Below are positions 34,241-41,028 of a DNA stretch of 64,000 nucleotides, piece after piece. This stretch comes from Cladosporium halotolerans (taxonomy: Eukaryota): positions 124,001 through 188,000 of the forward strand of contig NW_027191485.1 in the NCBI RefSeq assembly GCF_011745625.1, written 5' to 3'. The notes below the pieces were generated by a model. That model searched no databases, had not been told where the DNA came from, and saw only the letters and a program-made list of their open reading frames with translations. The translations under genes and the position numbers were made by a program. Position 1 is the first letter of the stretch. Every line of letters starts with the position of its first letter.

Positions 34241-36122
34241 TCAAACCAGTCTGCCTTGCCTGCCTCTGCGACCTCCAACCGCAGGTCCCTCTCCCAATTC
34301 GCTTCCTGCCGCGCTCGTTGTCCTGCTCATGGGCTCTGCGCCAATCCCAACCTGCCCTCGCAAAGCAGCACCCATGCTTCCTCCCACGGCGGGTGCGGGG
34401 GCTGACCCGGCAGCATTAGCCGTGGCAGCAGCTTGCACCCGCAACCTCTGCTCCAGAATGCTGGCGACTGGGGCAAACCCCGTGGCAGGCACGCGGTCAA
34501 CTCCACGACCGATGAGCGCAGGGCCCGTCTCCAGGAGAGGAAGACGGTAGGGCTGGCTTGCACCGAGAGATACGCCGAGCGCCTGATCGAGCAGCGCGTT
34601 GCGGACCTCTGCCCCGTTCGCAGGCTCGCCTCCAGCTTCGGCCATATCGATGTCTCCACTATCGTCTGTCCGGGCGCCGGCGAAACTGCTCCCGGCGCGC
34701 CTCATGAGCTCGAAGTCGTTCTCCGCGTCCAAGTTACTGACAGACGGGGGCGCAGGGGCTCCGCTCTTTTCACTCCGCGTCACTGCGTGGTAGTTCGGCA
34801 CGACCGGGGCGAATGGGTTGTCTCGTATTGGGACTGCCGCGGGATTGCCGCTTGCGGCGGCCGCCGCGGTTGCGAGGTCGGACAGCGCAGCGAGCGGGTT
34901 TGCTCGCGCGCCGCCACGTGTGAGGACCTGATGCGATGACGTGCGCTCCATCTCGGGAGCCGCGACTGGAGGCGTGCTCACTGCTTCTGCAGCAGCGTCT
35001 TCTCCATCAACAGCAGACGCGTTTTCGCGTCCTTCGTTGTCGACCGATGGCTCCGCCGTGGCATTCGTGTTTGAGTTCGAATCTTGTTGTTGTTGCGGCT
35101 GGTAGAAGTATTTGTAGGTCGCATTCTGGGCCGTGTTGGTAGCAAGGGCAAGTTCCTTGTCCGTGAAGAGACGCTCCAAGCTGTAGGCTGGTGCTTCGTA
35201 CTGAGCATAAATGCTCTTGTCGCGGGCGTCCTTGAAGGGACTTCTGCCGCCTCCCAAATTGTCGGGCGGAGGAATCGAGCGGAATGCCGGGACGGGCGAT
35301 TCGTTGCCTTCATCTTCCATAGCGGGTAGCTTGCGCTTCCTCTTGCCATTGTCATCACCACCATTGGGGCTGACAGCGCGATGCCGCAAGTGTCTCGTCT
35401 TACGATTGTATCCTCCACCAGGCGAGCCCGGGTTATTGACGCTGAACTGATTCGGGTTCAGTAACAGTGCGCTACTATCCGCGATGTCTAGTTGCTCCTT
35501 GTCTCGCAACAGCTGCTGCCGTCTCTTGGTAATTGTGGTAATAAGCCTTTGTCGGATCTGGCTGGCCAATGCTTTGTGCTCTTCCTCGGCTTGGTGGATT
35601 TTCTGCTGGGTCAAGCGATCGACTTCTGCAACCGAGGCCTGGTATTGGTTCTGTGTTGCTGTCAGCATTTGTATCAGTCGTCCATGGTCGTCGTCGACCT
35701 ACGTGTAAGGCGGTCAAATCCGCATCGCGGTTTTCAATCGCATCGTTTGCCTCTCTGACGAAGGTTCTATACCGATTGCCAGCCATGGCCCAGTAGTCTC
35801 GTTGTGCCGCATCGTCGCCTGGCATGTTCGCACCCATGCCTTCAACAAGCGACCTAATCTCGTCTCCGCCATCTTCCAAAGGTATGCCCTCGTAAGGGTC
35901 TGCGCGCAAGATGAGGTTCATGTCAACTTGCACAGCCTGCAGCTGAGCACGATAGTGCTGATGCTGATTGGCATTGAACGAATCCATCATCTGCTGCAGC
36001 TTTTCAACCATGCGATTGCGGCGCACATCGCGTTTAGTCATTTGTGGTTGTGGGACAGGTGAAGGCGAATCGCGCTCGTACGGCGAGCCATGACGGGGCT
36101 GCGTCATCGCCATGTCCACCAT
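34241..36122 (-). CDS. Sds3-like histone deacetylase (Rpd3L) complex subunit; intron 35651-35702; start at 36122 or 36113
   Basis: TKRDVRRNRMVEKL...HYRAQLQAVQVDMNLILRADPY; coiled coil; RQQLLRDKEQLDIADSSALLLNPNQF. Confidence 0.75.
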
Positions 36123-36895
36123 TTGCGCCTTGGAGCACGAATGTGGTGTCGAGACTGGTGTCCTTGCGATTGCGCGACCTCTTATGGTTGTTGTGGATAC
36201 GGGGATATGTCGATCAGAATCGATGTTGAACGATCGAGAGGTGCACAAATGGATGAGGTGACTAGTGACAGTGGCGCGGAAAGTCCGTCGTATTGTTCTT
36301 AGCGGTGCGCATGAACCACGCTTGGTATGAGGGAGCCGTATGTTCAGTTCTTGATGCTTGACCTCTGCGCGTGCCTTTCGGCTGCGACAAACGCCGAGTC
36401 CCGACGTCACTCCTTTCGCGAGGCAACTTTGGCGACGCTCTCATTTGGCCTGCCACATCACTTCCTTCACCTCTTTCACTTATTAGTCGCCTCCCCATAA
36501 CTTACACGTAGGTATCTCTCAAACTTCATCTTGCTTTGAAGGCGATTCCACATATGGACAGCTTCACCCGGTTCATGGCACGCTTGTTGTCGACCCGTTC
36601 GCTAAGGTTTGTCGACTTCAGCCGGTCCAGCTGCCAGGAACAATCCCCGCAGCAGGTCGACATTTCTCCGTCCACTCCATGGCTGCCATGCTACCGTCAA
36701 TTCTTAGGCCATGCAGCTATAGAGGGCATGTTGTCATTTCGAGCAATGAACCGCTCGAAATTAGCACTCCGTCCCATTGCCAGCTTCGCTTAGGGTTGGC
36801 TTAGTTCGCAGGCGTGGTGAAGCGTAGGTCTTAAATAGCCGTTCCCCTCTTCCTCGTTCTGTCTGGTAGTTGGATTGTCTTCGGCCGCGTCCAAT

Positions 36896-39451
36896 ATGGT
36901 TCTCTCAACATCCATACTATCGCTCTCGCTGGTGGGAAGCATTGCTTTTGCCTTGCCTCAAGATGGCTACAGTTCTCCACCTGAACACCCGGACGGCAAC
37001 GATTCTCTTGCCAATGCGCCCTACAGGTGAACCAAACAATATTCGAATGAAGGCCATGACTTGTACTAATACTGTTCCAGTGTGTTCCCCTTTTCCATTT
37101 GCGATCAGATGTCCGCCAGGCTTCCATAGCCTCAATGAGTTATCGTTCGCTTCGATGTAACGTCTCAGCTTACGATACGGACAGAGAACCCAGGTCTGCC
37201 CGTCGAGGACCGAATCGCTGACCTACTTTCGCGGATGACCATTGAAGAGAAAGCGACGCAGCTGATGCAAGGCGACATTTCCAATTGGCTCAACGTCACA
37301 TCGGGTGCTTTCAACCGCACAGGCCTGGAGACAAGCTTCGATCAGAAGACGGGAAGCTACTATGTCGGCTACCCAATTAGCTGGGACTGGCTTGCCGAGA
37401 ACATTCAGCGAGGTCAGGACTACGCTGTCAATGAGACACGCCTGGGCATTCCTCCGCTCGTCCAGACCGAAGGCATTCACGGCTTCCTGATTGGCAACGC
37501 AACCATCTTCAACAGCCCTATTGCCCACGCATGCTCATTCAACAGGACTTTGATCGAGCGAATGGCCGAGCAAATTGCTGTTGAAGCGAAGACGCTTGGC
37601 GTAAACCAGCTGTTCGCTCCAGTCGCGGACCTTGCAAGGGAACTGAGATTTGGCAGAGTCGAGGAGACGTATGGTGAAGATCCTTACCTCGCAGGCGAGT
37701 TGTCTTTGCACTATGTTCTCGGCCTCCAAAGTTTGAACGTTTCGGCGATGATCAAGCACCTTGCCGCTTCATCGATGCCCGAGCAAGGCCTCAACACTGG
37801 CCCTGTGCACGCAGGTGAGCGCGAATTGCGGACTACCTGGCTCCCACCGTTCAAGCCGGCAATCACCAAGGGCGGCGCTTGGTCAATCATGAGCGCTTAC
37901 ACGAGCTATGACGGGGTCCCTCAGGTTGCCGATGCTCATGTGGTAACCGACATTCTCCGCGACGAGTGGGGTTATGAGTTCTATGTGATGAGCGACGCTG
38001 GTGCAACCGATCGCCTTGCAAGCCCCTTCCGCATCTGTCCTTCTCCGCTCAACAAGTACGGTCAAGCCGTCAACGAAGGCAATGAATGTGTGACTCTCAA
38101 CGCGTTGCCGGCCGGAACAGATGTCGAAATGGGTGGTGGTTCCTTCAATTACCGCTCTATTCCTGAGCTCGTCGAGGCTGGCCGTCTGGATATCTCTGTT
38201 GTTGATCGGGCTGTGACGCGCTTGTTGCGTGTTAAGTTTACGATGGGCTTATTTGAGAACCCTTACATTGCCGCCCCAAAGAGTGAGTGGAATAACCTGA
38301 TCAATACACCTGAGGCAAAGGAGCTGGCCCGAGAAATGGACCGTGAATCGATCGTACTCCTCAAGAACGACCAGGAGATTCTGCCCATCAAGAAGGATGC
38401 CAAGGTCGCTGTCATCGGGCCCATGGCAGATGGGTTCATGAATTACGGCGACTACGTCGTGTACCGGTCTCAGTACCGCGGTGTCACTCCTCTTGACGGT
38501 ATTCAGAACGCTATCGGAAATGGTTCTGTCACCTACGCACAAGGCTGTGAACGCTGGTCTTCGGACCAAAGTGGATTCCCAGAGGCCATCGAGGCTGCTG
38601 AGGCTGCTGATGTCGCCGTCGTGGTGGTTGGCACATGGTCTCGCGATCAACAAGAGCTTTGGCAGGGATTCAATGCCACCACTGGTGAGCATATCGACGT
38701 CTCGGACCTCAGCCTCGTCGGAGCAATGGGTCCTCTCGTCCGCGCAATCGTGAACACAACGACTCCGACTGTTGTGGTCTTCAGCTCAGGCAAACCAATT
38801 ACAGAAGACTGGATCTCCAATACCACAGCATCGCTGGTGCAGCAATTCTACCCTGGCGAGGAAGGCGGAAACGCCCTTGCAGATGTTCTGTTCGGCGACT
38901 ACAACCCCTCCGGCAAGCTCTCCGTATCCTTCCCTCACGATGTCGGCACCCTGCCCATCTATTACGACTACCCTAACTCCGGCCGCACAACAAACCCTGG
39001 CATGATTCTTCCGGGCGGCGAAATTGTCTTCGGCTCTAACTATGTCACCAACACTCCGCAGCCCTGGTTCCCATTCGGATTCGGTCTGTCTTACACAACT
39101 TTCCAGTACTCGAACGTATCCCTCTCGGCACAAAATGCCAGCGCGACCGATCACATCACCGCAACAGTCTCTGTCACCAACAACGGCACCCGCGACGGTG
39201 CCGAGGTTGTTCAGCTCTACGTCAAAGACATGCTCGCGTCAGTCGACATCCCGAACATCAGGCTCCACGGCTTCGAGAAGGTCCACATCCCAGCCGGTGA
39301 GACGGTCGAAGTGGAGTTCCCGCTTGATGTGAGTGAGCTGGGTGTTTGGAACAGCCAGATGAAGTACGTGGTCGAGCCTGGGGACTTTACCATCTATGCT
39401 GGCGCAAGCAGCTTGGATCTCAGGGGAAATGCCACGCTGACCGTTGCATGA
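36896..39451 (+). CDS. Secreted glycoside hydrolase family 3 (beta-glucosidase/xylosidase); exons 36896-37025 and 37185-39451, separated by a predicted stwintron
   Basis: Signal peptide MVLSTSILSLSLVGSIAFA; EGIHG, RFGRVEETYGEDPYL, IKHL, VMSD nucleophile, NPSGKLSVSFP, FGFGLSYTTF, Fn3-like C-terminal domain. Confidence 0.93.
37026..37184 (+). other. Predicted [D1,2] stwintron (internal intron 37027-37080; external intron G37026 + 37081-37184)
   Basis: Nested excision gives TAC A|AG AAC (YKNP); internal GTGAAC..TACTAAT..CCAG; rebuilt donor G|TGTGT..GCTTAC..ACAG. Confidence 0.8.
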
Positions 39452-39983: not shown

Positions 39984-41028
39984 ATGGCCGACCAATACTT
40001 CAACCAGCAGCCCCACGGCTCGAAGAACAGGGTCGAGAATGTTGCGGTTGTGGGTGTAAGTAACATGCAAGCCTACTCAGTGATCACTCAAGAATGACAA
40101 TGATTTACAGGCCGGCGGCCGAGTCGGCTCCTTCATTGCCCACGCACTCCTCTCAACGGGCAAACACACGGTCACAGCCATCAGTCGCGCAGAGAGCACC
40201 TCATCCTTCCCGGAGAATATAATACGCCGCAACGTCGATTACGATGACCACGAATCCCTCGTCGCCGCCCTACGCGGACAGGACTTCCTCGTCTTCTCCA
40301 TGAGCGTCTCCGCCCGCGACGCCCAGGCCAAACTCATCGCGGCCGCCGCAGACGCTGGCATCAAGTGGGTCATGCCGAATGAGTACGGCGCTGATTACGA
40401 GCGCGACATCGCTTATGGCGAAGACACCGGTCTCGGACCGCCGGCTCTCACGGCACGCAAGGCGATCAAAGACGCCGGCATGAATTTCGTCGCGCTGTCT
40501 TGCTCGTTCTGGTACGAGTTCAGCCTGGCGGGCACCGCGGTGCGGTATGGGTTCGATTTTGACAAGCGGGAGGTCACGTTCTACGACGATGGTGAGACGA
40601 AGATCACGACCTCGACCTGGGAGCAGTGCGGGCGTGCCCTGGCGGCTTTGCTGTCTCTGCCCGTCTTGCCGATGAACGAGCAGGATGGGCAGCTAACGCT
40701 GAGCAAATTCCGAAACAAATCGTGCTTCATCGGATCTTTCCGCGTGAGCCAGAAAGATATGTTTGCATCCGTGCTGCGTGTGACGAATACTGAGGAGGCT
40801 GACTGGAAGATCGGGTATGAGGACTCGGAGGCGCGGTTCAAGCGTGCGAGAGAGCTATTCGCTCAAACGCATGAGCAAGGGTACTACGGAATGCTTCTCT
40901 ATTCTCGCACGTTCTTCAAGGATGTCTTCTTGAACTTTCAAAAATTGCTGAGCAACAAAGAGCTGGGCTTGCCAGAGGAAGACTTGGATGAAGCTACTGC
41001 TCGAGCCGTTGAGATGGCAAAAAAGTAG
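39984..41028 (+). CDS. NmrA/isoflavone-reductase-like (CipA-like) oxidoreductase; intron 40056-40110
   Basis: NVAVVG|AGGRVGS Rossmann motif, AADAGIKWVMPNEYG, CSFWYEFSL, TSTWEQCGRA. Confidence 0.88.

Follow-up and report, generated by a model that had tools for sequence, protein, structure and literature searches.

A GH3 gene in a 64,000-nucleotide (nt) stretch of fungal DNA (contig NW_027191485.1, positions 124,001 to 188,000; hereafter the window, whose numbering is used throughout) raises the question of how its two coding parts come to be joined. The 5′ part opens with an ATG at 36896 and encodes a hydrophobic, signal-peptide-like N-terminus and then a linker ending ..SLANAPY, and its frame stays open up to a TGA at 37028–37030. 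The 3′ part belongs to a 770-codon open frame (37139..39451, plus strand) that encodes GH3 N-terminal, GH3 C-terminal and Fn3-like domains. A preliminary description of the locus proposed that the 159 nt at 37026–37184 form a spliceosomal twin intron (stwintron) of the [D1,2] type, which is defined by an internal U2 intron lying between nucleotides 1 and 2 of the donor of an external intron (PMC5587772). We conclude that 37026–37184 is very probably a [D1,2] stwintron in the GH3 gene of a Cladosporium-like fungus. This conclusion is supported by two junctions in assembled contigs, by the reading frame, and by the match of the joined protein to its orthologues.

Reading frame and possible splicing routes

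At the GT of 37027, exon 1 (ending ..TAC AG/GTGAAC) is in phase 2, whereas the GH3 frame behind the CAG at 37182–37184 requires phase 1. In agreement with the preliminary description, none of the GT/GC..AG pairs, which were enumerated in full, provides a single intron from 37027 that joins the exon of ATG 36896 in frame to the GH3 coding sequence. One-step removal of 37027–37184 shifts the frame and soon leads to a stop, and removal of 37027–37080 alone runs, as had been foreseen, into a TAG, located at 37127–37129. Four two-step canonical routes have a net removal of 37026–37184, all of them starting from 37027; among the four, the acceptor at 37080 alone leaves a good donor (GTGTGT), the others leaving GCCTCA, GTTATC or a 17-nt remainder. 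With 37026–37184 removed, which is the only intron position of the gene, the coding sequence comprises 2397 nt (798 codons) and is open throughout.

The [A2,3] route, in which the preliminary description had likewise seen no solution, fails because the first base of exon 2 (37185) is A and not G; use of the AG at 37185–37186 shifts the frame. It is also worth recording that CTACAG followed by GT occurs twice in exon 1, once as ..GGCTACAG before TTCTCC (36966–36977) and once as ..CCCTACAG before GTGAAC (37020–37032). The GTTCTC at 36972, taken as a donor, would yield in-frame ..GY-K-NPG..; paired with the acceptor at 37184 it keeps the frame, yet the contigs described below read straight through 36972.

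Junctions in assembled contigs

Logan contigs of four out of 24 public sequencing runs (X1, X3, X4 and X5) were aligned to 36700–37400 at a minimum likeness of 90; X1 is probably DNA. The mature junction that had been predicted, 37025/37185 with its GG..AG ends, is present in one contig each of X3, X4 and X5, that is, in three studies and in three of the four runs compared. The skip is 159 nt, there is no microhomology at the joint (0 letters fitting both sides), and the contig sides measure 30, 142 and 146 nt. The X4 contig (record 6) is 2598 nt long and, running from 36884 to a point some 190 nt beyond the stop codon, has the extent expected of a complete mRNA. All three spliced contigs begin at 36880–36884, upstream of the ATG, where the DNA-like X1 contig continues.

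The intermediate that the preliminary description had called for also appears, with thin support, in a single contig. X3 record 5 (147 nt) is without 37027–37080 only (GT..AG ends) and runs on through 37081–37194 with no mismatch; its junction is 37026/37081, the alignment joint being placed at 37023 to 37078 with 3 ambiguous letters (cut +3). Records 4 and 5 of X3 both start at 36996 and represent two joined forms sharing exon 1. In work on other fungi, the splicing intermediate of a stwintron is called a “splinter” and, taken from read archives and by reverse transcription PCR (RT-PCR), serves as proof; X3 record 5 is the kind of molecule that these authors use in this way (PMC9024468).

Neither a one-step junction 37026/37185 nor any other junction was seen in the contigs of the four runs. 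The X1 contig covers 36700–37400 in one piece, without gaps and with seven substitutions, none of them between 36880 and 37194, and the genomic sequence therefore does not result from a spurious indel. Hence the outcomes that the preliminary description had named as damaging to its proposal, namely a different junction, transcription starting past 37080 or an indel, are not what these contigs contain. At site 37195, X1, X3, X4 and X5 all read G where the window reads T, a synonymous difference (GGT to GGG, both Gly).

Homologous proteins and related loci

Among 7990 candidates scored, 7386 are homologues of the GH3 protein with E <= 0.001. In 99 of the 120 best homologues, an N-terminal extension ending Y/C-K/R (93 with K, 6 with R) stands just before a conserved block, ..P.LPVE.R..DLL.RMT, which follows the junction, and many homologues read ..SLANAPYK.. 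at this place. Removal of 37026–37184 gives ..SLANAPY-K-NPG.., matching them.

Comparison of related loci, which the preliminary description had suggested, revealed a plain intron at the same Lys codon in 7 of 14 related metagenome loci (L001–L004, L007, L008 and L010; five distinct sequences, 85–90% protein identity). These introns are 178–254 nt long, with a GTACGT donor, a CTAAC/CTGAC branch element and a YAG acceptor, and they lie in phase 1, separating the first base of the Lys codon from the second, such that splicing gives ..SLANAPYKNP... The other seven loci (L005, L006, L009 and L011–L014; 52–81% identity) have no intron there. The 3′ end of the external intron in the window, GCTTAC..CAG, can be aligned with the GCTAAC..YAG of the relatives; beyond this end, the intron sequences do not align. 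Two of the relatives, L007 and L008, carry an extra canonical 70-nt intron (GTAAGT..CTAAC..CAG; L007 2139–2208, corresponding to about window position 37825) in the GH3 N-terminal domain. This intron is not in the window, and the intron content of the gene is therefore in flux among close relatives.

The preliminary description had further expected that gene finders would miss the first exon and with it the signal peptide. This holds for the public models themselves: the first exon is included in none of the 13 closest protein models (82–99% identity). Their starts all lie within exon 2, and one of the 13, a 738-residue NCBI eukaryotic model, starts at the internal MTIEEK. As for the cause, a stwintron may or may not be present in the genes behind these 13 models, which were compared as proteins. 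Orthologues from other Dothideomycete and lichen-fungus lineages (P0045, P0056 and P0063) also start at an internal MTI.EK, and their 5′ exon may have been missed for a similar reason.

Architecture of the intervening sequence

The features of the locus are collected in Table 1. The coordinates and motifs given in the preliminary description are all present in the sequence, both as read directly and as recomputed, and the definition of the class, known in Pezizomycotina as [D1,2] stwintrons, fits feature by feature (PMC5587772). The intervening sequence opens GGTGAAC (37026–37032), that is, with G1 of the external donor and then a complete internal donor. The internal intron, at 54 nt longer than the minimum of 42 nt required, has its donor GTGAAC at 37027–37032, a branch element TACTAAT at 37064–37070 (with ACTAAT fitting DYTRAY) and its acceptor CAG at 37078–37080. 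The spacing between branch element and acceptor is 7 nt, and the putative branch A is at 37069, 11 nt from the 3′ end.

Once the internal intron is gone, G37026 and TGTGT (37081–37085) form the donor GTGTGT, which is one of the 24 donors in model A of a 2022 search. The external acceptor, CAG at 37182–37184, is followed by AG AAC CCA GGT in the frame of 37139..39451. A candidate for the external branch element is GCTTAC at 37168–37173 (A37172), which has one mismatch to DYTRAY and aligns with GCTAAC/TCTGAC of the relatives; from this alignment it is probably the element used, with the branch point placed accordingly.

Table 1. Coordinates of features at the GH3 locus, in window numbering.
Feature	Position	Strand	Basis and remarks
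TATA-like TTAAATAG, possible core promoter	36831..36838	+	sequence; ~45 nt upstream of spliced-contig starts (36880–36884)
Exon 1, coding part	36896..37025	+	43 codons and first base (A) of codon 44; open frame, contigs X3, X4, X5
G1 of split external donor	37026..37026	+	exon in splicing step 1, intron in step 2; contig junctions
Internal intron, 54 nt	37027..37080	+	sequence; skipped exactly (GT..AG) in X3 record 5
External intron remainder, 104 nt (105 with G37026)	37081..37184	+	kept in X3 intermediate; skipped in X3, X4, X5 mature contigs
Exon 2, coding part	37185..39451	+	AG completes codon 44 = AAG (Lys); runs to stop; open frame and Pfam

Points against a stwintron and alternative explanations

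Several observations weigh against reading the locus as a [D1,2] stwintron. On the side of the splice signals, the internal donor GTGAAC departs from GTRWGY at position 5 (A5), where both published search models require G, and a strict DYTRAY branch element is absent from the external intron; the strict 2017 [D1,2] search pattern has no match within the 64-kilobase (kb) window. On the side of the contigs, the intermediate is thin and unreplicated, being a single 147-nt contig with a mean word depth of 2.2 in one of four runs, and on its shorter side it extends for 28 nt (31 if the ambiguous letters are counted) against the 30 taken as safe. The likeness threshold for the run alignment was 90, and the kind of runs X3, X4 and X5 (RNA) is guessed and not on record. 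Furthermore, contigs give neither strand nor kinetics, and they cannot separate an on-pathway intermediate from a dead-end isoform. As to the search pattern, the published screen motif is a search heuristic and not the definition of the [D1,2] class. Allowing the 2017 pattern one substitution in its 5′ hybrid motif and another in its external branch motif yields a single match over both strands of the 64 kb, which is 37026–37184.

It could be argued that the 159 nt leave in one step as a non-canonical GG..AG intron and that the RNA without 37027–37080 is an unproductive by-product. The mature junction does look on its face like a GG..AG gap, contigs do not order molecules in time, and such a by-product would contain a stop. 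However, U2 introns begin GU, occasionally GC (PMC5587772), and excision of the internal intron makes an accepted donor hexamer, GTGTGT (1 of 24), exactly where one is needed; in other fungi, RT-PCR has confirmed this same arrangement (PMC5587772, PMC9024468). We regard removal in a single step as very unlikely.

A different kind of objection is that the joined contigs are DNA of processed (intron-less) alleles or assembly artefacts, the 5′ exon being dead and the protein starting from the internal Met (MTIEEK). X3 records 4 and 5 share exon 1 in two joined forms, like a splice graph, and the contigs of X3, X4 and X5 start at 36880–36884, the X4 contig being mRNA-sized, although these runs contain contigs of 8–19 kb; the absence of shared letters at the 159-nt joint rules out a repeat-mediated artefact. 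A dead exon also fits poorly with an exon 1 frame that is open and ends in the conserved ..SLANAPY, with the richness of the mature protein in N-x-S/T sites, and with the signal-like N-termini of relatives. What speaks for the objection is that the kinds of run are guessed, that all 13 closest public models start inside exon 2, and that no public protein was found with the exon-1 peptide, for which 34 candidates were at hand and none scored, which is weak evidence. Weighing these points, we consider this explanation extremely unlikely.

Another two-step route, with either an internal intron of 37027–37139 and then GTTATC as donor, or a 1-nt exon T37081 (removal of 37027–37080 and 37082–37186) giving ..APY-S-NPG.., is scarcely credible, since although GT..AG ends and frame formally allow both versions, the intermediate seen uses 37080, the mature junction seen is 37025/37185 and not 37081/37187, GTTATC and GTGTTC are without G5, and the junction residue in orthologues is K or R, not S.

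Proposed course of splicing

For a [D1,2] stwintron at 37026–37184, the following course would account for the molecules seen. In a first step, the U2 spliceosome would excise the 54-nt internal intron (CAG/GUGAAC .. UACUAAU .. CAG), placing G37026 beside UGUGU and creating the donor GUGUGU. In a second step, this donor would act with a branch near 37172 and the acceptor CAG at 37182–37184, and the 105-nt external intron would be taken out. The final junction would join A37025 to A37185, codon 44 would read AAG (Lys), and the product would have 798 codons including an export signal. Both splicings would be of U2 type, consecutive, and under intron definition. It follows from the sequence that the internal-first order would be obligatory, because there is no GU at 37026–37027; that the two steps stand to each other as precursor and product is what we infer.

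Relation to known nested introns

Stwintrons of the [D1,2] type are known by the hundred in Pezizomycotina, and automatic annotation of them is, according to the authors of these reports, always wrong (PMC5587772, PMC9024468). They have been described in A. nidulans, Trichoderma reesei and Helminthosporium solani (PMC5587772) and, again by the hundred, in Hypoxylaceae and Xylariaceae (PMC9024468, PMC12403724), and the lipS gene has one across Leotiomyceta, with a standard intron at that place in early-diverging classes (PMC5639578). The element in the GH3 gene shares with unique [D1,2] stwintrons (those of the A. nidulans DHA1 antiporter gene and of lipS, and 81 in Hypoxylon sp. CO27-5) the 5′-GGU and the nested layout, and likewise the two consecutive splicings, the detectable intermediate, the frameshift on one-step use of the distal site, and the failure of automatic annotation (PMC5587772, PMC5639578, PMC9024468). 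Like the lipS stwintron, it sits where relatives have a standard intron (PMC5639578). It differs from these in its host gene and its taxon, both of which are new (a Cladosporium-like member of the Dothideomycetes), and in an internal intron of 54 nt as compared with 74–108 nt in four example rows of Table S1 of PMC9024468. Its internal A5 donor GTGAAC and probable external branch element GCTTAC also lie outside the 2017 pattern, which was run, and outside the 2022 model A, which was compared by inspection.

Two more specialised kinds of stwintron are worth considering. In the alternatively spliced [D1,2]/[A2,3] stwintrons of Helminthosporium solani and of the Trichoderma reesei DHA1 gene, the [D1,2] half has the same layout (PMC5587772), and here, too, GTGTGT is found in the genomic sequence starting from G37080. 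However, they require G as the first base of exon 2, where the GH3 gene has A37185, and no such junction is found in the contigs. The propagating “sister” stwintrons of Hypoxylaceae and Xylariaceae have the same [D1,2] architecture together with near-terminal inverted repeats (PMC9024468, PMC12403724). In contrast, the GH3 element is single, with no second copy of the 159 nt in the 64-kb window or the 14 related loci; its fold is ordinary (z = -0.29; equalled or bettered by 72 of 200 shuffles), and its position is common to the introns of relatives. Within the limits of 64 kb, it therefore does not qualify as a sister stwintron. Compared with the plain phase-1 intron of the related Cladosporium-like lineages, it has the same codon and phase and an alignable 3′ end, whereas the relatives have one GTACGT donor and no nested intron.

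In the recursive (ratchet-point, zero-length-exon) splicing of long animal introns, the first splicing regenerates a 5′ splice site for the second. That process has been named as distinct from stwintrons (PMC5587772), and the GH3 element differs from it: the second donor is recreated 1 nt upstream of the original, a splice-site element is itself physically interrupted, and both introns are short and fit intron definition.

No earlier report of a stwintron in Cladosporium or in a GH3 gene was found in the literature searched, the founding papers of 2013 and 2015 and most supplements lying outside that search. The words “glucosidase” and “glycoside hydrolase” are absent from the main texts of PMC5639578, PMC9024468 and PMC12403724, and neither a Pfam number nor a name for GH3 appears in Table S1 of PMC9024468. 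The class is already known and its occurrence here would not surprise a specialist; the GH3 gene and the Cladosporium-like host are new as far as we found.

The gene and its surroundings

The best named relative of the GH3 gene is a Cladosporium protein (91% identity). Membership of the GH3 family is clear from Pfam, with PF00933 at 3.2e-48 and 165.2 bits (cut-off 27) for the N-terminal domain; the C-terminal domain (PF01915) scores 8.9e-53 and 179.7 bits (cut-off 31), and the Fn3-like domain (PF14310) 2.4e-23 and 82.5 bits. Judging from its sequence features, the gene presumably encodes a secreted-type GH3 beta-glucosidase/xylosidase. The starts of the spliced contigs would place the start of transcription 12–16 nt before the ATG, and the TATA-like TTAAATAG upstream of them gives a weak hint of a core promoter.

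The downstream neighbour of the GH3 gene is a single open frame for an NmrA-like/NAD(P)-binding protein (40084–41025, plus strand). Upstream lies a divergent gene with an Sds3-like domain (35478–36440, minus strand). A 348-nt contig of X3 covers the intergenic stretch 36700–36847 as well as some 200 nt farther upstream, is separated from the GH3 contig by about 30 nt, and could be the 5′ end of the divergent gene, a longer GH3 leader, or carry-over of DNA.

Origin and significance

It is informative to consider the stwintron in light of the relationships among the loci. In a DNA tree of 10 rows, from which L006 was left out because of its short length, all plain-intron loci form a clade whose sister is the window (support 90/95), and the intron-less L009 and L005 serve as outgroup. 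Gain in the lineage of the window and loss in the sister clade take one step each, and the tree is therefore compatible with either polarity; paths of both kinds, gain and loss, have been discussed for stwintrons (PMC5639578). In local alignments, the internal and external cores resemble the introns of the five distinct relatives no better than shuffles do, the observed score being reached by 96–566 of 1000 shuffles for the internal core and, for the external core, by 110–1000 of 1000. A stretch of 24 nt resembles L007 at a similar offset, a resemblance that 404 of 1000 shuffles also reach.

We offer only tentatively, and with rather less confidence than would make it our expectation, the idea that the stwintron reflects a recent evolutionary event, a gain or a loss, confined to a single genus. 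If it was gained, the internal intron may have arisen in the donor of a plain phase-1 intron, either by insertion or by “stwintronisation” in situ. If it was lost by the relatives, their plain intron may be what remains of a stwintron whose internal intron disappeared when a long-lived intermediate was reverse-transcribed. Close relatives have their plain intron at this very position, whereas more distant ones have no intron there.

There are also practical consequences for annotation. None of the 13 closest public models contains the 798-codon protein with its export signal, and inventories of the secretome and of carbohydrate-active enzymes (CAZymes) of these common moulds would misplace the enzyme as intracellular; the same annotation error is to be expected wherever a [D1,2] stwintron sits at a 5′ exon junction. 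The GH3 gene adds a case with transcript-contig support beyond the Eurotiomycetes and Sordariomycetes, the source of most described cases, and it illustrates that a nested intron of this kind can be called correctly from raw sequence alone. Its splice signals lie outside the motifs used in the censuses, and stwintron censuses are therefore lower bounds.

The finding is useful for annotation, and in research on how introns are born and lost it may serve as a young case. If the event is indeed young, it would show that off-consensus internal donors let stwintrons escape current screens, and it would give sister lineages of Cladosporium that differ by one nested intron, a natural before-and-after pair for the birth or loss of introns.

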